Part shown: in pieces, positions 1 through 12,601 of the stretch | Layout: each line of letters starts with the position of its first letter | Numbering within the stretch: position 1 is the first letter of the stretch | DNA from: Gammaproteobacteria bacterium | GTDB taxonomy: Bacteria > Pseudomonadota > Gammaproteobacteria > JACKNK01 | Assembly: GCA_024234955.1 (NCBI GenBank) | Contig: JACKNK010000001.1 | Span: 212,835 to 276,834, forward strand | Direction of reading: 5' to 3' | Length of the DNA stretch: 64,000 nucleotides | The notes under the pieces: generated by a model | Told to the model about the DNA's origin: nothing | The model's database searches: none | What the model saw: the letters and a program-made list of their open reading frames with translations, nothing else | Position numbers and translations under genes: made by a program

Positions 1-1652
1 AATCCTCGAAGCGTCGACGTCGTTCTTTCTCCTTGAACCTCCACCGTCCAGACATTCATCTCGTCTGGTGTCTTCTTGTGCCAGCCCTTGCGCTGGAATC
101 GCCTCTGCAGGTGCTTCCATTCAATGGCGTTCGCTGCCGCGTATTCTTTGAAGATCTGCGGGCTGACGAGCAGCAATCCCTCTGACAAGCCGTGGACCAG
201 GGCATCCTTGCGGTTGCATGCCATCGATCCCGAAGCGAGGCCATCGCGCAGCCAGGTCATGAATTGATCCTCGATCTCCTTGTTGGCGGATGGTTCGCTG
301 GTTGCGTCCTCGAGGACATCGTTCTGGGGCGTTGCGACCGTTGGTGTGGGGGAAGGATCGGCGAGTCGTGGCATGGGAATCTCCGCATCGCGCTTGTCCT
401 TGACGGGCGCTGGCCCCGGGGCTGGATCCGCTGCAAGAGACGGCGATGCGGTCTGAGCATCGCCGTCTCTTGCAGCGGCGACCGCTGGTGTGACCTCCTC
501 GGTTTGGGTATGAGGCGTCACCGTTCCGGCGATGCTCGCAGGGCGTTCCTCGGGGTTTGGCCATAACCGGTCCAGATGGAAGGCCAGGACGCGCATTTCC
601 TGCTCCCAGCCGTCCTGCAGAGCGATTTGGACCGTGTGTATGGCGCGACCGTCTTCTGTGGTCGTGATCGCGCCGATCGCCTGCAGCTCGTCCATGAGCC
701 GGTTGTTGTCCGTTGGGATGCCGCGGACTCCGAGATTGCTGAGGTAGTCGCGTGCGGCATCGAGGACTTTCTTCGACACCAGCCAGGCGGTATTGCCGGT
801 GATCCAACCGGCGGCGCCACGTTGGTTGAGTGGTAGCTTGTTGTCTCGATGTAGATGCGCGATCGCGCCGAGCACCTGGTCGGCGACTGTTTTGACGTCA
901 CCGGCAACGGCGGGGCGTTTGCCGCCGGTGAGATCGCGAGCGGTCGAATAGCTGTCACCTTGCTTCACCAGTTGGGTGATGGCGTTCTCGCCACCGCTCA
1001 GGGCGCTGATCCAGTGCTCGAAGAGCTCGGGGGTTTCACTCAACCAGGCAAGGCCTTGATCCGGAATTATCCGGGTGGCCACAAGTAGCGAGGCGCTGGC
1101 ATGGAGCTTGTAGCGGCGCTGTGCGTCAAATCGAACGCGATAGAACGTGGTGCCTGTTTCAGCTAGGTTGCTGATCCAGGGGTTCCAGTCGTTGATGACC
1201 ATGCCTTTGTGGTCGACGAGTTCGACCCGCTGATCAGTGATGGGTTTGGCGATGTCGTGGAAGAGGGCGGCCGTCGCGATCGCGTAGCGTTCCTTGGCAG
1301 CCTTGATCTCGGTTTCCTCGACGATGGCCGGGATGATGGCCATGGGGGCGCGCGCTGCTCTTAGTGCGTAGACGGCCACTTCCAGGCTGTGACGCAGCAG
1401 TCCGCCAGCGTCTGCATGGTGGTGGCTTTGTGAGGCAGGGAGTTCTTGTACGAATGAGGCGTAGCGCAGCAGCAGCGTGTGCAGCAGGCGATCGGAGTGG
1501 TGGTGCGGCAACCCGACCTGGACGTTGAGTTCGTCGACCAGGTCATGGTGGCGGGCGAGGAGTGTGCCGGCGTCAGTGACTGCCAGGCAGCCAGGCGGCG
1601 GTGAGACAGTTTGCCGTTGGTTTCGGTGTGGCTTTCGCCAGCGTTGGAGCAT
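1..1652 (-). CDS. traI: MobH-family ICE relaxase TraI (PFGI-1/pKLC102 class), partial because the C-terminus runs off the window start. The start codon is at ~1652, or alternatively ~1766.
   Basis: My own minus-strand translation is open from 1809 down to position 1. It contains the motifs ASQSHHHADAGGLLRHSLEVA and LFHDIAKP, the HD-hydrolase signature of MobH relaxases such as SXT/pKLC102 TraI. It is absent from the ORF track, which only lists complete ORFs. Confidence 0.75.
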   Translation of the reverse strand, partial: MLQRWRKPHRNQRQTVSPPPGCLAVTDAGTLLARHHDLVDELNVQVGLPHHHSDRLLHTLLLRYASFVQELPASQSHHHADAGGLLRHSLEVAVYALRAARAPMAIIPAIVEETEIKAAKERYAIATAALFHDIAKPITDQRVELVDHKGMVINDWNPWISNLAETGTTFYRVRFDAQRRYKLHASASLLVATRIIPDQGLAWLSETPELFEHWISALSGGENAITQLVKQGDSYSTARDLTGGKRPAVAGDVKTVADQVLGAIAHLHRDNKLPLNQRGAAGWITGNTAWLVSKKVLDAARDYLSNLGVRGIPTDNNRLMDELQAIGAITTTEDGRAIHTVQIALQDGWEQEMRVLAFHLDRLWPNPEERPASIAGTVTPHTQTEEVTPAVAAARDGDAQTASPSLAADPAPGPAPVKDKRDAEIPMPRLADPSPTPTVATPQNDVLEDATSEPSANKEIEDQFMTWLRDGLASGSMACNRKDALVHGLSEGLLLVSPQIFKEYAAANAIEWKHLQRRFQRKGWHKKTPDEMNVWTVEVQGERTTSTLRG

Positions 1653-1946
1653 TGCCGGACCTTTTGCCCCGCAGGGGCTGACCCTTTGTGTTGGCCCTTT
1701 CCCGCCCGGGTTGCGCAGCGGCCCGGGCGGGCCCTCTGGGGGTAGGGCCTTTGCCCGTACCGCCATTCCCTTGAGGTTATCCCTTTGGCCCTTTGAGGCA
1801 GTCTGTATCTAGGTGATGTGGTATCCGCAATTATTCTGTTGAGTTCTGCACACGCCTTGGGCGCGAGCTGACTCCTACGGGCGTATTACAGCCGGCTCTA
1901 ACGTTTGAACTAAGCCGCGACGCCAAGCGTCTGCTTGAATCAATTT

Positions 1947-2546
1947 TTAGGCGACATGCGATACCTGATTGAGAAATGTACGCATAGCTTTTCGGTAACG
2001 AAAGAGCATTGAAAAACCGACAGTCAACTCGTCACCAGCCTGCGGCAAGGGCTCAATGAATGATCTGACTATCTTGATTGATTTGTCGTTCCACACACCT
2101 TGTCCGTGTGTAAGTACGTTTCGTACTGCTACGAGTTCAAAGCAGCCATTTGCTGCCCAGTGATAGCGTTGATCCAACCCTTTCTTGAGCTTCTCGACTT
2201 TTGACTGAGGAAAATTTCCCGCTGTTTCACCCCGTGCGGAAAGCGCTTCATTCATCATTTCATCAAGGATCACAACGAGATCTTGCACCAGCATCTTAAT
2301 TACTTGTCGAGATGTGTCTTCGAAGTGCATTGAAGGATCACGCCTGAAGGTAAGCACCTTCTTCCCCTCGGGGTGCGCTAGAAGAACGGAGTTGTAAGAG
2401 CAGTCTGGTGTCACCCAGGTATGCGCGTCGCGAGCGCGCTGATCCAGACTGGTCAAATCTCCAAACTGTTGTTCCCTCGAGATATGTAGCGAGTGAATCA
2501 GAGTGTAAAGAGTGCTGGTCCAGACGTTGACTCTCTCCCAGTCCAC
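1947..2546 (-). CDS. Hypothetical protein in a low-GC island, with a possible HEPN-like Rx4H motif (RNVLTH).
   Basis: 199-aa ORF in a ~48% GC patch. It points the same way as the next two genes. It contains the RNVLTH motif. Confidence 0.45.
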   Translation of the reverse strand: MDWERVNVWTSTLYTLIHSLHISREQQFGDLTSLDQRARDAHTWVTPDCSYNSVLLAHPEGKKVLTFRRDPSMHFEDTSRQVIKMLVQDLVVILDEMMNEALSARGETAGNFPQSKVEKLKKGLDQRYHWAANGCFELVAVRNVLTHGQGVWNDKSIKIVRSFIEPLPQAGDELTVGFSMLFRYRKAMRTFLNQVSHVA

Positions 2547-2607
2547 TTGGATTTCCTCCTATCAAACATCCTTTTGGATGTTTTCGTGGTAACGGGGGAG
2601 AGCCCCA

Positions 2608-3078
2608 TTACGCACAAACTGGCTCAGATTTTAACTTTTCTTCGACGCGAATTCGGTGGCGATTAGAAAGGATGGCTTTTTGTTGTTCTATATCGAGATA
2701 CCTATAACTCTGTGGTGCTACGAACCCCGACATTGCAATGCGCAGGTGTTCTAGTCTTATCGGCTCGATAGATTCGTAATGCGAAAGTTGAACGGCAAAT
2801 CCTGCATCTTGATCTTGGAAGTAGTGGTCGAAGCGATCACGGGAAAGTCCTACTTTTGCCCTATGACGCGCCCACAACTCCGTTGGCTTATCTACGTCGA
2901 TACTCGCAACGCGAACCCTGCCTAGAATCGCCCCGACAGGCAGGGTTACATACAAATAAATCCATGTTCCTTCAGGTGCATCAGGAAAACGGCGGCGCAG
3001 TTCCACGGTCTTTGATCCGCCGGCGATCTTCTCAGCAAACTCTGGTGCGACAGATAACAAAATTGCACGACCGTTCAT
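2608..3078 (-). CDS. ASCH-domain (PUA-like) protein.
   Basis: 156 aa. The N-terminus ILLSVAPEFAEKIAGGSKTVELRRR resembles ASCH/PUA-like beta-barrel proteins. It overlaps the upstream gene by 4 nt, which suggests an operon. Confidence 0.5.
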   Translation of the reverse strand: MNGRAILLSVAPEFAEKIAGGSKTVELRRRFPDAPEGTWIYLYVTLPVGAILGRVRVASIDVDKPTELWARHRAKVGLSRDRFDHYFQDQDAGFAVQLSHYESIEPIRLEHLRIAMSGFVAPQSYRYLDIEQQKAILSNRHRIRVEEKLKSEPVCA

Positions 3079-5162
3079 GCCAACATCCTCATGCCCTCTT
3101 GGTAGACCTCTGTAAACAGCCCCTCTGGCACACGCAAGGGTCCTGGCACACGATTTTTTGTGCCCATGTGGTCAAGGATTAAGTTTTCTAGCCGTTTCCA
3201 TGGCAACGGACAGACCAGTAGTTCTGTTTTCGCAAAGTGATACGCCTTCAGTTTCGCGGAAGGATCTCCTCCTGCGGCGTCCAAAATATTCTGCCATGTG
3301 TACGCACCGAGACGATGGAATTTTCTCGACAAGCGGGTCGCCTCGTCCGTCTCGGTTCCCAGGCAGAGTGAGACTGCACGGACCTCGCTGACAGGGCTGC
3401 TCACGTACCAGAGGATTCGGCTTCCCTCGGGGATCACAACGTTCGACCGAGAGTAGTAGACGTTTTCTAACGCCAGTGCAGGGTGTTCCGGGACATCAAA
3501 AAAGTCGTTTTCCGCGAGATCACGATCGAACAGCGCGGTTGCCCAGTATTTCTGGATTGGAACGATGTAGGTCGATATGCCAGCTCCAAGGACCTTGAGG
3601 GGCCAGAACATCGCCTCAAGTTCGCGAGGTTCGAGGGCGGCCAGTGTCGACACATCTGGGAAGTGGTCGTTTATAAGGTCAATCGCGCCCGTTACATCAA
3701 CCATCTCTCGTAGGGTCTGGAACACAAGAATTCCATCACGCGAATACTGAAACCCCAGTTCCAGAAGAGCTTCCTGAATATCGCCAGAACCGGGGTCATC
3801 GATCATTACGGAGGTGAGCCCCTGCCTATTCGCAATCTCAATCACATCTGCTAGGGCACGCCGCAAGAGCGTACCGGTCAACGGGCCACTGAGAGTGCGG
3901 AGAAAGCGAAGGCGTAGCGAACTGGGTGGCGACTGATCGACGGCCAGGGCTACTCGCGGATGCTCTCCGCGCACGCCGATTAACTGGACTGTGCATCTGC
4001 TGCACGACGAGAGGGTGGTTCGTATCATCCTCAGCCAAGTCGCTTTGGTTTCTCCAGAAGAGAATCGCTGAAAGGGCAGAAGGTCATGTTCCGTGACGAT
4101 CGACCGTCGCTCAACGCGTGTACCGTTGAGACGAACCGGCGCGTATGTTTGTCCGAGAAAATTCCCTTGTAAACGAGCCACCATGTCGCAAGGACGAAGT
4201 ACGGTTAACCCTGTTACCGTCAGAATGTCGTCCGCATGATCGAGAAGAACTTCATCGCGGGTCGCGAAATATTTGGCACCGTCCAGGGATGCATGGGCGA
4301 GTTGGCGACGGTCGGAAAAGTCAGAGTGGGTAACCGGCGTAGGCATTACGTCACCGATCTCGTCCAGCATCTCGTCTAGCTTGTCAGGATGTCCCGCGAG
4401 TTCTTCGAATCGATGAAAGTATGACAACGCCCGTTGCCGCTTTGCGGGGTCCGGTTGGCGTGAGACTTCATTACGAAGTTCACGGGTTACACAAATTTCG
4501 ACATCATCAAGCCAATCACTTAGTAACCCTCCACTCTCCTCATAGTGTGGGGCGGCAGGATCCATGATGTCGAAAAAGACATTGGCATCGATCGCAATTA
4601 GGCGGGACGGTGCTCCAGGCGCGTCCCGGATAGCTCGCAACAGCGGTGCATCATCTCGATTGACTCGGCGCCACTCAAAAAGTGGCATTGAGTCCGCACC
4701 TCGACCGACTATCTCGTTATCCAAGGCGAACCCGTGTTTCGGCCATAACTGATTTGCAGCCTCGTAGTCTTTGCGGCAACGCAAACGAATCGCGTTGGCG
4801 TCCTTGCTTAGATGAATCAGGTGCCGCAAGAGATTTTCGGAGCAATCAGAACCGCGGTGCTCCTCCGCAACACACAGGTGCACCAAGACGACCTCGCCCC
4901 TGGAGCGTCTCCAAGCTGCGTACCCTAGTAGCTCCTCGTTCCGCGTATGGGCAAGAACACAGCCGGCATGTACGAATTCGTCTAACGCGCCACGCGGAAG
5001 AAAGCCGAGTGTGTTGGAGTTTTTACGGTACAAATCCCACACTTTATCCACCAGGATTGAACCAGGTGGTACCAGGGAAAGCATGCTTTCGGTCATCCCT
5101 GCGAATCCTTTCCTTTCGTATGTGCCAATTAGTACGTAGTCATTCGCTTGGTGGACGAGCAC
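3075..5162 (-). CDS. Multidomain protein: N-terminal GNAT acetyltransferase, a PIN nuclease domain, a second GNAT-like region, and a C-terminal domain of unknown (possibly PUA/EVE-like) fold.
   Basis: 695 aa. The GNAT motif is LVHLCVAEEHRGSDCSENLLRHL. The PIN motif is LIAIDANVFFDIMD. A second acetyltransferase-like stretch reads LTSVMIDDPGSGDIQEALLELGF. GC is low. Confidence 0.55.
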   Translation of the reverse strand: MLVHQANDYVLIGTYERKGFAGMTESMLSLVPPGSILVDKVWDLYRKNSNTLGFLPRGALDEFVHAGCVLAHTRNEELLGYAAWRRSRGEVVLVHLCVAEEHRGSDCSENLLRHLIHLSKDANAIRLRCRKDYEAANQLWPKHGFALDNEIVGRGADSMPLFEWRRVNRDDAPLLRAIRDAPGAPSRLIAIDANVFFDIMDPAAPHYEESGGLLSDWLDDVEICVTRELRNEVSRQPDPAKRQRALSYFHRFEELAGHPDKLDEMLDEIGDVMPTPVTHSDFSDRRQLAHASLDGAKYFATRDEVLLDHADDILTVTGLTVLRPCDMVARLQGNFLGQTYAPVRLNGTRVERRSIVTEHDLLPFQRFSSGETKATWLRMIRTTLSSCSRCTVQLIGVRGEHPRVALAVDQSPPSSLRLRFLRTLSGPLTGTLLRRALADVIEIANRQGLTSVMIDDPGSGDIQEALLELGFQYSRDGILVFQTLREMVDVTGAIDLINDHFPDVSTLAALEPRELEAMFWPLKVLGAGISTYIVPIQKYWATALFDRDLAENDFFDVPEHPALALENVYYSRSNVVIPEGSRILWYVSSPVSEVRAVSLCLGTETDEATRLSRKFHRLGAYTWQNILDAAGGDPSAKLKAYHFAKTELLVCPLPWKRLENLILDHMGTKNRVPGPLRVPEGLFTEVYQEGMRMLA

Positions 5163-5445
5163 TAGAATTCAGCGATCGTTCGGGTGATCACGGCGAAGTG
5201 GCGCTGCCTTGAGCGTTGGAGCACGCTTCGTCCCCGGCTATTTGTAGGGCGTTGCGAGGTTCTCTGACCACATCGTCGTCTGATGAGCGAGTGAGTATGA
5301 TCACGATTCGTTGCTTCCGGACAAAGGTAGCGCAAAGTGATCCGATATATCAGCTGACGCTGTTGTTTTCAGAAAATGCTTAGAGTTACTGGTTGGATCA
5401 GTTCTCGCAGCGTTGTTCTTTTGAGTGCGGACTTTTAACAGAATG

Positions 5446-5541
5446 CCCATTTTGTTCAATGTCGGGTGTCGCCGGGTACGGTACGACGGGTTCTCGCGAG
5501 GTCCCGTGACTGACGTGCCAAACTCCGTTTTGTTCAAAGTC
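5446..5541. repeat. Two copies of a ~16-bp direct repeat, ttttgttcaa(t/a)gtcg, 78 bp apart, just upstream of the fimB-like gene.
   Basis: Seen at ~5446-5463 and ~5524-5541, in the divergent intergenic region between the GNAT-PIN gene and the fimB-like gene. Confidence 0.5.
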
Positions 5542-5549
5542 GCGGAGAG

Positions 5550-6134
5550 ATGGTGGTGGAAGAGGGTGTTCAGCTGGTTGTCGATGGCCATGACCGGCAG
5601 GGCCGGGACTTTCTGACCCCATCGGAGATCACGCAGCTGCTCGATGCCGCCAAGAAAGGTCGGCATGGCGTTCGTGACCATGCCTTGCTGCTGACGATGT
5701 ATCGGCATGGATATCGGGTCTCGGAACTCTGTGAGGCGACGCTCAACGACTTGAGTCTTGGCGAGGCGCACATCTGGGTACGGCGAAAGAAGGGATCGAT
5801 GTCGACTCAGCAGCCGATCGAAGGCGACGAACTGCGTGCCTTGCGTCGTTACCTGCGGACAAGGTCATTGAATCAACGATGGCTGTTCCTGTCGGAGCGG
5901 GACGGGCCCTTAACGCGGAATGCGGTGTACTACCTGGTCACGCGTGCCGGCGAAAAGGCTGGACTGCCCTTCACCGTGCATCCGCATATGCTGAGGCACT
6001 CGTGCGGGTACTACCTGGCCAACAAGGGTTACGACTTGAGATTGATCCAGGACTACTTGGGGCACCGAAATCCTACGCATACAGCCAGATATACTCGAAC
6101 CGCATCCGCGCGATTTCATGGACTTTGGTCGTAG
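5550..6134 (+). CDS. FimB/FimE-family tyrosine recombinase, a short site-specific invertase-type recombinase.
   Basis: 194 aa. It is very similar to E. coli FimB throughout, for example HPHMLRHSCGYYLANKGYDLRLIQDYLGHRNPTHTARYT, with the catalytic R..HxxR..Y residues. Confidence 0.85.
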   Translation: MVVEEGVQLVVDGHDRQGRDFLTPSEITQLLDAAKKGRHGVRDHALLLTMYRHGYRVSELCEATLNDLSLGEAHIWVRRKKGSMSTQQPIEGDELRALRRYLRTRSLNQRWLFLSERDGPLTRNAVYYLVTRAGEKAGLPFTVHPHMLRHSCGYYLANKGYDLRLIQDYLGHRNPTHTARYTRTASARFHGLWS

Positions 6135-6179
6135 CCGTGCGAGTGCGTTTTTTAGCAAGCATGAACAAGGAGGCTCTGT

Positions 6180-6491
6180 ATGGATATCGATCCGTTTGCG
6201 CAACTCGTCGGTGGCTATGACAATTTGCTTTATTTCGGGCTGGGTGTGCTCGTATTGGGAGCAATGCTTCGTTGGGTACGTCTCCGTACAGACGTTTACC
6301 TCAACACACCGACGTATCGGAATTACGTTGCGAGACACCCTGAGGCCGCGACCGGAGACGGTGTCAAATGTATTCACTGTGGGAGCGCAAACATCCGGAA
6401 TAGGGGGTATCAGGGCGAACAGGATCGTTCCAGGCTGCATGTCTGCGAGAGCTGCGGCCGGACGCTATACCGGACGACATCGAGTTTTTAG
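6180..6491 (+). CDS. Small protein with an N-terminal transmembrane segment and a C-terminal CxxC...CxxC zinc ribbon.
   Basis: 103 aa. A strong aaggagg Shine-Dalgarno lies 7 nt upstream of the ATG. The cysteine pairs are CIHCGS and CESCGR. Confidence 0.45.
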   Translation: MDIDPFAQLVGGYDNLLYFGLGVLVLGAMLRWVRLRTDVYLNTPTYRNYVARHPEAATGDGVKCIHCGSANIRNRGYQGEQDRSRLHVCESCGRTLYRTTSSF

Positions 6492-6501
6492 GTGGGGGCA
6501 G

Positions 6502-7416
6502 CTAAACGCGCGGCAGCTGCCGAATGACCTGCCGCTGCAACTCCTCGTTGCTGTGTACGTATTCCAGGGTGGACCGGTAGTCGTTGTGTCCCATCAGTTC
6601 CTGCAGGGTGCGTAGATCCGTTTTTGGCGCAAGCATGGTACCGAAGGTGTGTCGCAGCTTGTGCGCGCTGATCGGGATGCTCAGATGGTCGGAGAGGCGG
6701 CGAAAAAAACCGCTGATTTGCTCCGGCGTCAGTTCATCCCCTTTGAAGCGTGTCGTGAACCGGGTCACGTTGAAAAGCTGTTCATCCTGGTCATCGATGC
6801 AAACCTGTATCTCTGACCGGTTCAGCAGGCGCACGAGATGGGGCAGTAAGAGATCCGAGATCGCAATGTCGCGGGCCTCTCCGTTCTTCGAGAACTCGGC
6901 CCGGAGGTGGATGGCGCCAGCGCGAAGGTCGACGTCACCAACACGGATGCCGGCGAGTTGGCGCCGGCGGATTCCGGTGAAGAACAGCGTTCGTATCGCT
7001 GTCGCCCAAAACCAGCCTGGCTCCAAGGCGCAGTCTGGCCCCTCCAGGTAGTCAATCGCAGATTGCACGGTCTCCAGCTGAAGAGACTTCGGCAGCTTCT
7101 TGGGTGGACGTAGCGTTACCCGATCGAAGGGGTTGCTCTCGATGCCTGATTCCACGACATCTTTGCGCAGGAACTCCCACAGGGCCCGCATATGCACGGC
7201 GTAGTTGTTCCAGCTCCGGATCGCTGCTCGGCTCAGTACCTGCTCACGCCAGAGAAGCACGCCTTGCCGGGTCAAGGAGGCCACGTTCCCCACAGGATGG
7301 CCCAGGGCCTCCAAATCTCGCTCGGCGAGAGCAATGACTGTCTGGTAGTGACGCATCGTCGCCGCGCTGGGTAACCGCTCCAGGCGGTAGGCGTTCAGTG
7401 CATCCCACAGTGTCAT
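6502..7416 (-). CDS. Tyrosine site-specific integrase/recombinase of the phage-integrase family, XerC/XerD-like.
   Basis: 304 aa. The C-terminal catalytic region AHKLRHTFGTML...LMGHNDYRSTLEYVH carries the R-H-R-Y signature. Confidence 0.85.
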   Translation of the reverse strand: MTLWDALNAYRLERLPSAATMRHYQTVIALAERDLEALGHPVGNVASLTRQGVLLWREQVLSRAAIRSWNNYAVHMRALWEFLRKDVVESGIESNPFDRVTLRPPKKLPKSLQLETVQSAIDYLEGPDCALEPGWFWATAIRTLFFTGIRRRQLAGIRVGDVDLRAGAIHLRAEFSKNGEARDIAISDLLLPHLVRLLNRSEIQVCIDDQDEQLFNVTRFTTRFKGDELTPEQISGFFRRLSDHLSIPISAHKLRHTFGTMLAPKTDLRTLQELMGHNDYRSTLEYVHSNEELQRQVIRQLPRV

Positions 7417-7505
7417 TTCGCTCCCTCATCCATTGCATTGCGCTTCTCCCTGCACGTGGGAACGACGGCGCGGCTTCCATAATTCCGGAATCTTTCAGAC
7501 CGACG

Positions 7506-8054
7506 TCAATCGATGCGGGTCACAGATTCCTGGAAGTTCCACATCAACCATTCGAGCCCGAACGCCCAGGCGATTCGACCCATGATCTTGATGCAGGGGA
7601 CCGCGCTACGATTCCTGAAGTCGTAGAGATACGTCGCCGAAACGTCGATCGCATCGGCCAGTTTCGTGATCGAGTCGACCGCTTCACCATCTGGAGTCAG
7701 GACGTTGATTGGCGGGTTTTTCTTAATGCCAATAAGAAGATCGATCTGACGATCTACCAATGCGGACATGCCCATCACGAGCCCGTTGGGCAGGTCTCGA
7801 AGAAGTGGGGCGGTGAGGTCGAAGAAACGTCGAAGATCGGTCGGGTTGCTGGGGTCGAGCGTGAATGCGGCGGCGCGGGCCTGTTGGTACAGACCCCGGT
7901 AAATACGGTCGAGATCCGGGCGGAATTCGACGACGGGGACGGATCGATTGGCGGGTTGTGCCATGACAGCTCCTTCTTGGTACTGATGATTTCCGTAAAA
8001 GTGGAAATATTTTTTCAGCGGCATGACGAAGCGGTCAACACACGCTTTCGTCAT
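7506..8054 (-). CDS. XRE-family helix-turn-helix DNA-binding protein. The start may instead be the internal Met at ~7964.
   Basis: The C-terminus has an HTH, ITKLADAIDVSATYLYDFRNRSAVPCIKIMGRIAWAFG. Confidence 0.45.
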   Translation of the reverse strand: MTKACVDRFVMPLKKYFHFYGNHQYQEGAVMAQPANRSVPVVEFRPDLDRIYRGLYQQARAAAFTLDPSNPTDLRRFFDLTAPLLRDLPNGLVMGMSALVDRQIDLLIGIKKNPPINVLTPDGEAVDSITKLADAIDVSATYLYDFRNRSAVPCIKIMGRIAWAFGLEWLMWNFQESVTRID

Positions 8055-8067
8055 GCCACTGGACGCT

Positions 8068-8808
8068 TCAGTACCGGAAATAGAGCAACCGGCTGAACCG
8101 TGGCCAGACGCTCACTCCAAGGCGCTCATTCCAATCTTCAGGCAAACGCAACGTGCCGAAAATCGCGTCCCAGAACGTGATAGTTGCGTAGTTGAACCGG
8201 TGCAGGCCTCGCTGGTGATGCACCAGGTGTTGTTCCGGTATCTGGACCACGTAGCCCAGCGGGCGCAGCCAGCGGGGCGTGTTTACGTTTGCGTGGTGGA
8301 ACGATTCGAGCGTGCCCTCGATGACGAGAACGGACCAGATAATCGTGGCATCGAGGCCCAGTCCAAGCCTGGCGACAATGACGATCACTGCTGAATTGGC
8401 AAAGATTTCGATGGGGTGGCGCCAGAACGCCACCCGCGTTTCCATGTGCGCGGCCGCGTGATGGGCGAAGTGCAGGTAGTGCCAAAGCGGGTGGAATCGG
8501 TGCTTGGCGCGGTGCCACCAGTAGGCCGCGAAGCTGTATACGGCGTACCCGATCAGGAGTTGCTGCCAGTCGCTGAGTCCATCCAGGGGATGCCATATGA
8601 GTGGCAGTCCGGACCAGGCGGAGAGATAACTTGCCGTCCATGCGGCTGCGTAGAGTTGGACGGCTGCCCACCACCAATTCCATCCCGGTGCGTCCGGGTA
8701 GTGACGGGCGGGTTTGACGCGCTCCATGATGAAGAACGAAGTGAAGACGACGGCCTGCATGGCCATGATTTGGGTTTCCATTGCTCCCTCCTGTATTTCC
8801 GTTTGCAA
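8068..8808 (-). CDS. Fatty acid hydroxylase / sterol desaturase-family membrane protein.
   Basis: It has His-box motifs (HRAKHRFHPLWH, HFAHH, HHANV...HLVHH) and several hydrophobic segments. Confidence 0.7.
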   Translation of the reverse strand: MQTEIQEGAMETQIMAMQAVVFTSFFIMERVKPARHYPDAPGWNWWWAAVQLYAAAWTASYLSAWSGLPLIWHPLDGLSDWQQLLIGYAVYSFAAYWWHRAKHRFHPLWHYLHFAHHAAAHMETRVAFWRHPIEIFANSAVIVIVARLGLGLDATIIWSVLVIEGTLESFHHANVNTPRWLRPLGYVVQIPEQHLVHHQRGLHRFNYATITFWDAIFGTLRLPEDWNERLGVSVWPRFSRLLYFRY

Positions 8809-8855
8809 GGAGGAGCGGATGCTACGACTTCAGTTCACGCGGACAGGAAACAGTC

Positions 8856-9509
8856 ATGTGCGGTCGATACAACTTGGTGACCGATGCTCAGGCGCTCGTC
8901 GACTTCTTCGACGTGGCCATGGCGATCGACCCGGTCTTTGTGCCCCGATACAACATCGCGCCGACGCAGTTCGTACCGATCGTTCGTGACCAGGGGCGGG
9001 GCAGGGATCTGCTGAATGCCCGCTGGGGCCTCGTGCCGCATTGGTCGCGGGAAGGTGAGACCAAGTATTCGACGATCAACGCACGCGCGGAGACAGTTGC
9101 CGAGAAGCCCACGTACCGGGCTTCGTTCAGGCACCGTCGCTGCCTGGTGCCGGCGACCGGGTTTTACGAATGGAAGGCTGGCGACAATGGTAAGCAGCCA
9201 TACCAAATCACACTCGCCGGCGGCGGACTGCTTGCGTTCGCCGGGTTATGGGATCGATGGATTGGCCAGGAGGGTGAGCTATTCAGCTTCTCGATCGTGG
9301 TTACCGCGGCCGATGCTTCCATGCAGGGGTTGCACGAACGTATGCCCGTGATGCTGGAGCCGAAGGACTACAGCACCTGGCTGACCGGGAGCGGGGACGT
9401 GGTGAGTTCGTTGCTGCGGCCGCACGGTCAGAACCTGGAGCTTCGTCCGGTGAGCCGGTACGTCAACAGTCCTGCCCACGATGATCCGAGGTGTCTCGAC
9501 CCTGTCTAG
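8856..9509 (+). CDS. yedK: SOS-response-associated peptidase (SRAP, YedK/HMCES family). The start is taken at MCGRY. The listed ORF begins 75 nt further upstream.
   Basis: It has the MCGRY N-terminus and the conserved SRAP core (NARWGLVPHW, ARAET, FYEWK). The catalytic Cys2 requires a start at MCGRY. Confidence 0.85.
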   Translation: MCGRYNLVTDAQALVDFFDVAMAIDPVFVPRYNIAPTQFVPIVRDQGRGRDLLNARWGLVPHWSREGETKYSTINARAETVAEKPTYRASFRHRRCLVPATGFYEWKAGDNGKQPYQITLAGGGLLAFAGLWDRWIGQEGELFSFSIVVTAADASMQGLHERMPVMLEPKDYSTWLTGSGDVVSSLLRPHGQNLELRPVSRYVNSPAHDDPRCLDPV

Positions 9510-11910: not shown

Positions 11911-12350
11911 CGACGTTGCAGCCAGGTCTGGATCGCACGACCGGGATCGAGCGTTCCGTAAACGACGTGGTTCGCATCGCCATCGATGACGACAGCGGGT
12001 AAGCGGGTCAACCGGTACTGGCTGGCCAGCAATCGGCCCTGCCAGGCCTGGCCGATCTGGGTCGACCAGTCCGGTTGCTCCTGCAGGCGTCGAAATACCT
12101 CCTGCTGGGCCTGATCCGATTGAGTGGGCAAACCCTCGCTCATCGCCTGCTGCAGACGTGTGACCGCGTCGAGTGCATGCACATGCACCGCGATACCGCG
12201 CTGTTCCAGCGCCACCTGGTTCTGCAACGAGGTAGGCCGTTCAACGAACACATCTATCCGTGACGGACCCGCAATGGCCAACGCGGGAAGCACCCATGCG
12301 AACAGCACCGCAGCTCGGGCCCAGAGTGAATGTTTTGGCATCGAGGTCAC
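11907..12350 (-). CDS. ICE T4SS periplasmic protein of the PFL_4709 family (TIGR03757-like).
   Basis: 147 aa with a signal peptide. Its position between traC and the traU-like gene fits. Confidence 0.45.
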   Translation of the reverse strand: MTSMPKHSLWARAAVLFAWVLPALAIAGPSRIDVFVERPTSLQNQVALEQRGIAVHVHALDAVTRLQQAMSEGLPTQSDQAQQEVFRRLQEQPDWSTQIGQAWQGRLLASQYRLTRLPAVVIDGDANHVVYGTLDPGRAIQTWLQRR

Positions 12351-12592
12351 GCCTGATTCTCGGCGTGTGCCCCTGCTTCCTTGGCGCGGCGGATCTCCAA
12401 ACGATCGACCTTGGTGTGCCTGGGCGCGACCACCCGCAGGTCAGTTGCGCTCCCCCGATCGCCTCGCGAACGAACCACGGTGATGTACACCGCCTCGTCA
12501 CCCTGGCCGATCACCAGGGTCTGTGTCGGCTTGCGACCGAGCGTGAGCACGGAGTGGGTCGGCGGTATGTCGATATCGGTCTCGTGGGTCAC
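12347..12592 (-). CDS. Divergent CsrA-like small RNA-binding protein embedded in the T4SS operon.
   Basis: 81 aa. LTLGRKPTQTLVIGQGDEAVYITVV...LRVVAPRHTKVDRLEI aligns with CsrA ([22 protein letters not shown]...VRIGVNAPKEVSVHREEI). Confidence 0.5.
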   Translation of the reverse strand: MTHETDIDIPPTHSVLTLGRKPTQTLVIGQGDEAVYITVVRSRGDRGSATDLRVVAPRHTKVDRLEIRRAKEAGAHAENQA

Positions 12593-12601
12593 GGGCTGTC
12601 C

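Follow-up and report, generated by a model that had tools for sequence, protein, structure and literature searches.

The 64,000-nt window analysed here (positions 212,835 to 276,834 of contig JACKNK010000001.1 in the gammaproteobacterial assembly GCA_024234955.1; coordinates below follow the window numbering) contains part of an integrative and conjugative element (ICE), whose cargo includes three minus-strand genes that encode, in the order of transcription, a large multidomain GNAT-PIN protein, a small ASCH-domain partner and a stand-alone HEPN protein (Table 1). The large and ASCH genes overlap by 4 nt (ATGA at 3075-3078), and the HEPN gene lies downstream of the ASCH gene after a gap of 61 nt. 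A first-pass annotation of this DNA had described three overlapping, co-directional open reading frames (ORFs) that together form an undescribed defence or toxin-like system; the three ORFs are real and share a strand, but the overlap is confined to the large and ASCH genes. The same annotation placed the genes in a segment of about 48% G+C within an ICE of about 64%. A compositional dip is indeed present, but its depth was overstated: the segment 1850-5300 has 52.7% G+C (48.8% in the HEPN gene, 48.6% in the ASCH gene and 54.6% in the large gene), compared with 60.8% in the whole window and 62-63% in the flanks. We favour, with a probability of roughly 0.6, an explanation in which two independent mobile cargo modules lie side by side, namely a GNAT-PIN-GNAT2-ASCH plus ASCH conflict pair (2608-5096) and a solo HEPN gene (1947-2546).

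Co-occurrence across loci separates the two modules. Of the more than 409 large-protein relatives that a metagenome scan returned, the best 80 loci were analysed. An ASCH gene lies directly downstream on the same strand in 70 of these 80 and, counting one locus in which it is upstream and divergent (L016), the pairing holds in 71 of the 76 loci with room for it, four contigs ending too early. At the other five loci (L020, L054, L065, L074 and L088), the large-protein homologue is full-length and no ASCH gene is detectable by hidden Markov model. Some of the five, L088 among them, carry a divergent ASCH-like ORF upstream, with a GEKKIECRL signature in L088; gene order and ASCH type thus vary within the family. 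ASCH is moreover fused to the C-terminus of the large protein in 5 of 41 aligned homologues. A HEPN homologue, by sharp contrast, is present at none of the 80 metagenomic large-protein loci and is also absent from the additional loci L001-L005 and L010-L012. Reciprocally, the large-protein/ASCH pair is found at none of 16 HEPN-homologue loci (L006, L007, L093-L102 and L104-L107), including those with homologues 78-82% identical to the window's protein. This mutual absence, together with the ASCH pairing and the fusions, indicates that the conserved unit is the pair and that the HEPN gene stands alone, independent of it. Only in this element do the HEPN gene and the pair occur together, and the three-gene system first proposed is not borne out. 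No recurrent downstream gene that could serve as a conserved third component, be it the AAA_17 ATPase mentioned by Bell et al. (PMC7641849) or a HEPN gene, appeared in the loci examined; the one neighbour seen repeatedly encodes an HNH_5 endonuclease (~268 aa) and lies directly upstream of the large gene in 6 loci (for example, L042 1777-2583).

The large ORF (3075-5162, minus strand) extends as far as a GTG at 5162, which would yield a protein of 695 aa. Judged from the sequence, the ATG at 5096 is the more likely start: it is preceded by the Shine-Dalgarno sequence GGAAAGGA, and a deposited protein from a Gammaproteobacteria metagenome-assembled genome (MAG) that is 100% identical to the large protein (P0001) has 673 aa. 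For these two reasons, residues of the large protein are numbered here on the 673-aa form.

Table 1 Coordinates of the cargo genes, the predicted domains of the large protein and the adjoining recombinase genes.
Feature	Position	Strand	Description
Large effector gene	3075..5096	-	673 aa from ATG at 5096; architecture GNAT1 - PIN - degenerate GNAT2 - ASCH/PUA-like
GNAT1 domain	4656..5063	-	aa ~12-147; Pfam and PDB profile matches
PIN nuclease domain	4182..4604	-	aa ~165-305; invariant D170, E206, E210, D262, D281
GNAT2, second GNAT fold	3663..4046	-	aa ~351-478; motif A position degenerate (R400-T-L-S-G-P)
C-terminal ASCH/PUA-like beta-barrel	3093..3629	-	aa ~490-668; invariant W563, Y564, R560, P653
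ASCH partner gene	2608..3078	-	156 aa; ZmASCH homologue, PDC-M11B / 'GevA' type
Stand-alone HEPN gene	1947..2546	-	199 aa, GTG start; outside the conserved pair
Tyrosine recombinase, short	5550-6134	+	194 aa; Pfam Phage_integrase; adjoins the pair
Tyrosine recombinase	6502-7416	-	Pfam Phage_integrase; adjoins the pair

Within the large protein, the N-terminal GNAT domain matches Pfam Acetyltransf_1 (E 1.2e-6, aa 40-123), is present in all 41 aligned homologues and finds Ard1/RimI-type N-acetyltransferases in PDB profile searches (aa 12-147). Its motif A reads RGxGxA in distant homologues and R81-G-S-D84-C-S86 (RGSDCS) in the window's sub-clade. The PIN domain is recognized as PIN_3 in 26 of the 41 homologues and as PIN in 17, and its five acidic residues are invariant in all 41, for which reason the nuclease site looks intact. 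For the C-terminal half, a PDB sequence-profile search gave only a marginal GNAT match (YsnE, E 0.7), and structure prediction was therefore needed. The C-terminal beta-barrel is homologous to the partner ASCH family (profile-profile comparison: probability 95.9%, E 5e-9), with the PUA-like relatives EVE, YTH, McrB-N and VcaM4I as next-best structural matches; it is a paralogue of the partner ASCH. The GNAT, PIN and ASCH assignments made at first sight are all upheld. Nor is the four-domain form a rarity: an exhaustive phmmer search of 1.84 billion representatives returned 1731 matches to the four-domain family at E<=1e-3 and 811 at E<=1e-30 (the latter figure counting clusters at 50% identity). 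Nearly all of the top 150 matches are 670-730 aa long and align in a single stretch over residues 1-670, and the usual annotation of such four-domain homologues is only 'GNAT family N-acetyltransferase'.

The partner protein matches Pfam ASCH (E 1.1e-4) and, nearly over its full length, the PADLOC profile PDC-M11B (PDLC04424; E 5.6e-32, aa 2-138 on profile positions 6-139 of 142). Its family alignment displays an invariant GxKTxExR signature (K23, E26 and R28) along with invariant Y43, W69, Y86 and P122. The family profile aligns over the full length with ZmASCH (5GUS/5GUQ; E 4.6e-38, aa 4-141). ZmASCH (ZMO0922; PDB 5GUQ/5GUS) of Zymomonas mobilis binds nucleic acids and performs Mg-dependent cleavage of single-stranded RNA in vitro, preferring pyrimidine-adenine bonds, with Tyr47, Lys53 and Ser128 being important (Kim et al. 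2017, PMC5615036). ASCH homologues also occur in phages: phrog_3136 matches the partner at E 7e-30, and a homologue was found in 34 phage records.

Contrary to its first label, the pair is not undescribed: its family had been predicted from sequence in computational work of 2013-2020. PIN-GNAT-PUA architecture was reported for PIN_15 and PIN_17 proteins, beside which a second PUA/ASCH protein is always encoded (as an HTH-ASCH protein, with a helix-turn-helix, in alpha-proteobacteria), and the PIN-associated GNAT was noted to lack motif A and to be probably inactive (Matelska et al. 2017, PMC5499597). The '(PIN)-GNAT-EVE' operons were described as nearly always including an ASCH gene, often an AAA_17 ATPase, and as associated with type I restriction-modification (R-M), with GNAT-EVE forms occurring in prophages and none of the modules characterized (Bell et al. 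2020, PMC7641849); both papers cite Iyer 2013. The operon also figures in PADLOC as PDC-M11, which belongs to a set of 145 candidate phage-defence systems singled out because they are embedded in BREX, DISARM and type I R-M systems, an approach termed guilt-by-embedding (Payne et al. 2024, bioRxiv 10.1101/2024.01.29.577857). At one locus (L011), a canonical 513-aa protein beside an HTH-ASCH gene matches PDC-M11A end to end (2-482 of 486, E 1e-122), and a homologue of the window's large protein (P0044) matches profile positions 2-159 of PDC-M11A, the PIN part, through aa 144-304, as well as the PUA part (304-492) of the PDC-M11A models.

A further relative resides in Escherichia phage PhiR47_2 (PV340567.1; L103 1944-3372), in which the ASCH homologue is annotated as 'GevA antitoxin' and its 357-aa neighbour as 'GevT toxin'. 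GevT is a full-length PDC-M11A protein (E 2e-133, 10-356 of 357) and GevA a full-length PDC-M11B protein (E 7e-52). The two genes lie directly downstream of cI in this lambdoid phage, a position held by rexAB in lambda. No significant match between GevT and the window's large protein emerged from direct comparison by BLASTP or by single-sequence hhalign, and the link therefore goes through the shared PADLOC profiles and the ASCH partners. A Foldseek search of the BFVD viral structures likewise gave only single-domain GNAT or ASCH matches and did not tie the two-domain C-terminal half to GevT-like proteins of phages. In the accessible literature, no mechanistic paper on GevT, GevA, PhiR47 or PDC-M11 and no paper behind the Gev names was found.

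Homologous pairs occupy heterogeneous contexts with defence genes scattered among them, in agreement with the conflict-related role suggested initially. The fused form lies inside a type I R-M operon at four loci (L002-L005), in the order HsdM, HsdS, a 222-aa protein, HsdR, DUF4357 and YgjP, followed by HEPN_AbiU2. The 222-aa protein between HsdS and HsdR (L004 2325-2993, plus strand) carries an RNCLVH (RNxxxH) motif and has no Pfam match, and the HEPN_AbiU2 protein 3' of the fusion has 435 aa (L004 10224-11531, plus strand); HEPN genes non-homologous to that of the window thus recur near the pair. At another locus (L001), the pair is flanked by an MmeI/Eco57I-type methylase and SNF2 helicase on one side and by a Septu PtuA-like ATPase, an HNH gene and HsdR on the other. 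The 148 non-redundant neighbour ORFs at 71 loci include type IIG/ISP and type I R-M, PtuA, GajA, AriA, PglX, BrxL, mad2/3, Mrr and HNH_5 genes. Homologous pairs lie inside type I R-M and MmeI/helicase operons and adjoin Septu, Gabija and BREX genes. Overall, the pair is patchily distributed, with members at ~30% identity spread over mobile and defence loci of several phyla, and only 3 plasmids of PLSDB carry a relative.

These trends lead us to propose that the pair is most likely an RNA-directed toxin-antitoxin-like or abortive-infection module carried as ICE cargo. The large protein would be an RNA-directed effector or toxin, in which the ASCH-like domain in cis positions an RNA, plausibly tRNA or another modified RNA, that the PIN domain would cleave and/or GNAT1 would acetylate in an acetyl-CoA-dependent manner, with GNAT2 acting as a non-catalytic scaffold or substrate-binding domain. 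The ASCH protein in trans would form a complex with the effector as an antitoxin-like regulator or a co-sensor, holding it in check until a phage infects the cell or the element is lost, and the outcome would be growth arrest or abortive infection, and/or stabilization of the ICE. A stoichiometric complex acting on nucleic acid, most simply RNA, is suggested by the intact PIN site, the conserved ASCH pockets, the single-stranded RNA-cleaving homologue, the obligate and coupled pairing, and the fusions.

Several observations weigh against this proposal. Strict conservation of the ASCH pocket and the ASCH-effector fusions are unusual for a classical labile antitoxin, and the 'toxin' and 'antitoxin' labels come only from GenBank annotation. 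The key glycine of motif A is replaced by aspartate in RGSDCS, which renders acetyltransferase activity of the window's protein uncertain; competence as an acetyltransferase is plausible but not assured. In raw counts, recognizable defence genes are a minority of the neighbours at the 71 loci, and no experiment on any family member was found in the accessible literature. Iyer 2013, as relayed by Bell et al. and Matelska et al., favoured acetylation of DNA bases. As for the separation of the two modules, the HEPN gene, co-directional with the pair and close to it, may be co-transcribed with the pair and functionally linked to it locally in this ICE.

The main rival to an RNA-directed effector is a nucleic-acid modification system, in which GNAT1 would acetylate a DNA or RNA base (for example, to N4-acetylcytosine) and the two ASCH modules would read or erase the mark, which could serve to label self, to counter restriction while the ICE is transferred or to make targeting by the PIN domain depend on the modification. 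Nucleic-acid acetylation by PIN-GNAT-PUA proteins is the proposal that PMC5499597 and PMC7641849 attribute to Iyer 2013; one ASCH protein, YqfB, acts as an N4-acetylcytidine amidohydrolase (review PMC12707154); the PUA-like relatives EVE, YTH, McrB-N and VcaM4I bind modified bases; and, besides the location of the pair inside R-M and BREX-like operons, ASCH fused to HsdS has been reported (Bell et al. 2020, PMC7641849). We nevertheless regard this system as unlikely, given that the nearest sequence relatives of GNAT1 are protein N-alpha-acetyltransferases (RimI/Ard1), that motif A is altered in the window's sub-clade and that the partner is closer to ZmASCH, an RNase, than to YqfB.

A pure addiction module can also be envisioned, that is, a type II-like toxin-antitoxin pair that stabilizes the ICE and has no role in phage defence. 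It accords with the names GevT toxin and GevA antitoxin given to the phage homologues, with the relaxase and recombinases of a mobile element adjoining the pair, and with GNAT and PIN domains being classic toxins of toxin-antitoxin systems. Yet many homologues reside in chromosomal R-M or defence operons rather than on plasmids or ICEs, as the few PLSDB plasmids illustrate, and the supposed antitoxin has no DNA-binding HTH, shows strong conservation of its ligand pocket and, in some homologues, forms a single protein with the toxin, all of which makes pure addiction improbable. A more speculative form of the acetylation idea, to which we assign a distinctly low likelihood, treats the four-domain proteins as 'writer-reader-cutters' of an acyl mark: the N-terminal GNAT would write the mark on a base of RNA or DNA (N4-acetylcytosine, for example), and the ZmASCH-like modules in cis and in trans would read it, or erase it as YqfB does, thereby gating the PIN nuclease. 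If true, this would amount to acetylation-based self/non-self or infection-sensing immunity, distinct from methylation-based R-M.

Very little likelihood is left for a novel three-component defence or toxin system formed by HEPN, ASCH and GNAT-PIN proteins. Its appeal lies in the local arrangement, as the genes are co-directional, closely spaced and all within the G+C dip, in the frequency of HEPN proteins in defence islands and in the HEPN_AbiU2 gene that follows the fused homologue at L002-L005. Against it stand the complete lack of co-occurrence in both directions, a HEPN family of 194 matches with no conserved neighbour and the earlier description of the pair. Weakest of all, and hardly tenable, is an incidentally located housekeeping RNA or protein acetyltransferase (TmcA-like or RimI-like), for which PUA-like domains, common in the translation machinery, and a weak RimI similarity of GNAT1 (TIGR01575) can be cited, the latter far under its cutoff (34 bits versus 86), and which is at odds with the patchy, diverged distribution on mobile and defence loci, a G+C content lower than that of the host element and the fusion to an intact PIN nuclease. 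No TmcA, helicase or DUF1726 match was obtained in Pfam, NCBIfam and PDB profile searches, so that the TmcA-like family named in the first-pass annotation as a possible identity of the large protein was rejected.

The solo HEPN gene has an AGGAGG site ahead of its GTG at 2546, and its family is conserved from residue 1, with W3 and W9 invariant. The public MAG annotation of the gene (P0099) comprises only 127 aa; the conservation from residue 1 and the AGGAGG site back the 199-aa GTG start and make this call too short. Across 40 family sequences, R142, N143 and H147 are invariant (an Rx4-6H / RNxxxH motif), and the 199-aa protein adopts the alpha-helical HEPN fold, in keeping with its initial designation as HEPN-like. 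The protein has no match in Pfam, PADLOC, NCBIfam or PHROG, and, for its family, neither PDB profile comparison nor Pfam scanning of 40 members went beyond marginal HEPN_Apea and RiboL-PSP matches (E ~0.15-0.19). Its family amounts to 194 matches at 55-86% identity in Pseudoxanthomonas, Pseudomonas, Comamonas, Sphingomonas, Bradyrhizobium and others, including a Flavobacteriia genome, whereas a tblastn search of the PLSDB plasmids gave none. No neighbour is conserved across 12 homologue loci clustered with the window's own locus (L008), the contexts in L104-L107 differ from one another, and no adjacent MNT nucleotidyltransferase antitoxin was found as a conserved neighbour in either set. The closest homologue (P0059, 82% identity; L104/L105) sits between a 584-aa AAA_15/AAA_21 ATPase and a pair formed by an RVT_1 reverse transcriptase and an HTH gene; the genes at L104 3977-5731 and 6853-8089 adjoin a Tn-like rve/AAA_22 module, and the whole looks like a small defence island. 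Other homologue contexts include Mrr_cat and NucS genes and look like variable or defence regions. The gene thus appears, from its sequence, to be a ribonuclease-like (RNxxxH) member of an unannotated new family within a known superfamily, and to travel independently among the variable regions of many Proteobacteria.

The proposed position of these genes as cargo of a conjugative element is corroborated by their surroundings. A TraI_2 relaxase gene, running off the left end of the window, lies on one side, and on the other lie the two tyrosine recombinases and the type IV secretion system genes TraU, DUF1525 and TraC_F_IV, together with SRAP, fatty-acid hydroxylase and CsrA genes. The last three look like other cargo among the transfer genes: they encode the SRAP/SOS-response peptidase (8781-9509, plus strand), the fatty-acid hydroxylase-family membrane protein (8068-8808, minus strand) and a small CsrA homologue that adjoins TraC at ~12300-12600 (L008 2505-2750). 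A short distance upstream of the gene for the 194-aa recombinase, an 18-nt sequence (CCATTTTGTTCAATGTCG / CCGTTTTGTTCAAAGTCG) is directly repeated at positions 5447-5464 and 5525-5542, 78 nt apart, and might be a recombinase or regulator binding site. Flanking repeats, direct or inverted, that would delimit an inserted cassette did not turn up in positions 1400-8200. The scan of 1500-5700 for promoters and terminators found no sigma-70-like sites and terminator-like hairpins in no greater number than in shuffled sequence, and is uninformative on co-transcription.

The (PIN)-GNAT-PUA plus ASCH family is widespread: its members turn up repeatedly within R-M and BREX-like operons and in prophages, and the present case adds an ICE. 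Computational studies have singled the family out time and again, and no published mechanism was found. Our survey sharpens the picture in that the partner in trans is a close relative of an ASCH protein that cleaves single-stranded RNA, the C-terminal domain in cis is a paralogue of that partner, and the four-domain form has an additional, plausibly catalytic GNAT1 alongside a degenerate internal GNAT. This raises the questions of whether the target is RNA or DNA, whether acetylation is part of the mechanism and whether the two ASCH modules associate with each other or are competitors for a ligand. The survey also corrects a tempting but wrong three-gene interpretation and brings to light a solo HEPN family, highly conserved and unannotated, that moves through regions resembling defence islands.

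Among known systems, the HEPN gene comes closest to the toxins of HEPN-MNT toxin-antitoxin pairs (SO_3166, PDB 5YEP; 7AE2; 8XDJ) and to solo defence HEPNs such as HepS. The large protein resembles the GNAT toxins of type II toxin-antitoxin systems (aminoacyl-tRNA acetyltransferases of the TacT/AtaT/KacT type) in having a GNAT domain in a toxin-like context, and aminoacyl-tRNA was suggested as a possible target by Bell et al. (PMC7641849). It differs from them in that its cognate partner is not a small ribbon-helix-helix or HTH antitoxin, in its multidomain architecture and in that the best sequence matches of GNAT1 are RimI/Ard1-type enzymes. The ASCH partner shares with ZmASCH the GxKTxExRR signature and, in a mapping based on the residue numbers of the 5GUS chain, counterparts of Tyr47 (Y43) and Ser128 (S124, in a PQS motif), whereas a glycine occupies the position of Lys53. 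A further difference is that ZmASCH was characterized as a lone monomer, in a study that did not deal with its physiological role or genomic setting (PMC5615036).

The closest likeness is to PDC-M11. The partner matches PDC-M11B nearly over its full length, on models to which GevA also aligns; the large protein has the core order of PDC-M11A (PIN, GNAT fold and PUA-like domain), a homologous C-terminal PUA-like domain and sequence matches in the PIN and PUA parts; its internal GNAT lacks motif A, as in the PIN-GNAT-PUA proteins of Matelska et al.; and the two genes are adjacent, coupled and associated with type I R-M and other defence genes. Unlike PDC-M11A, the window's protein carries an extra N-terminal GNAT of ~150 aa and, in contrast to the end-to-end match of canonical members, it aligns with only ~100 of the 486 profile positions (~20%), a partial match explained by the extra N-terminal GNAT and the diverged internal one. 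Unlike the alpha-proteobacterial type, with its HTH-ASCH gene upstream, the window's ASCH is downstream and has no HTH. By these sequence comparisons, the pair is a long, four-domain architectural variant of the already predicted PDC-M11 / 'GevTA' family, of which the four-domain form with the extra N-terminal GNAT is the less well described part.

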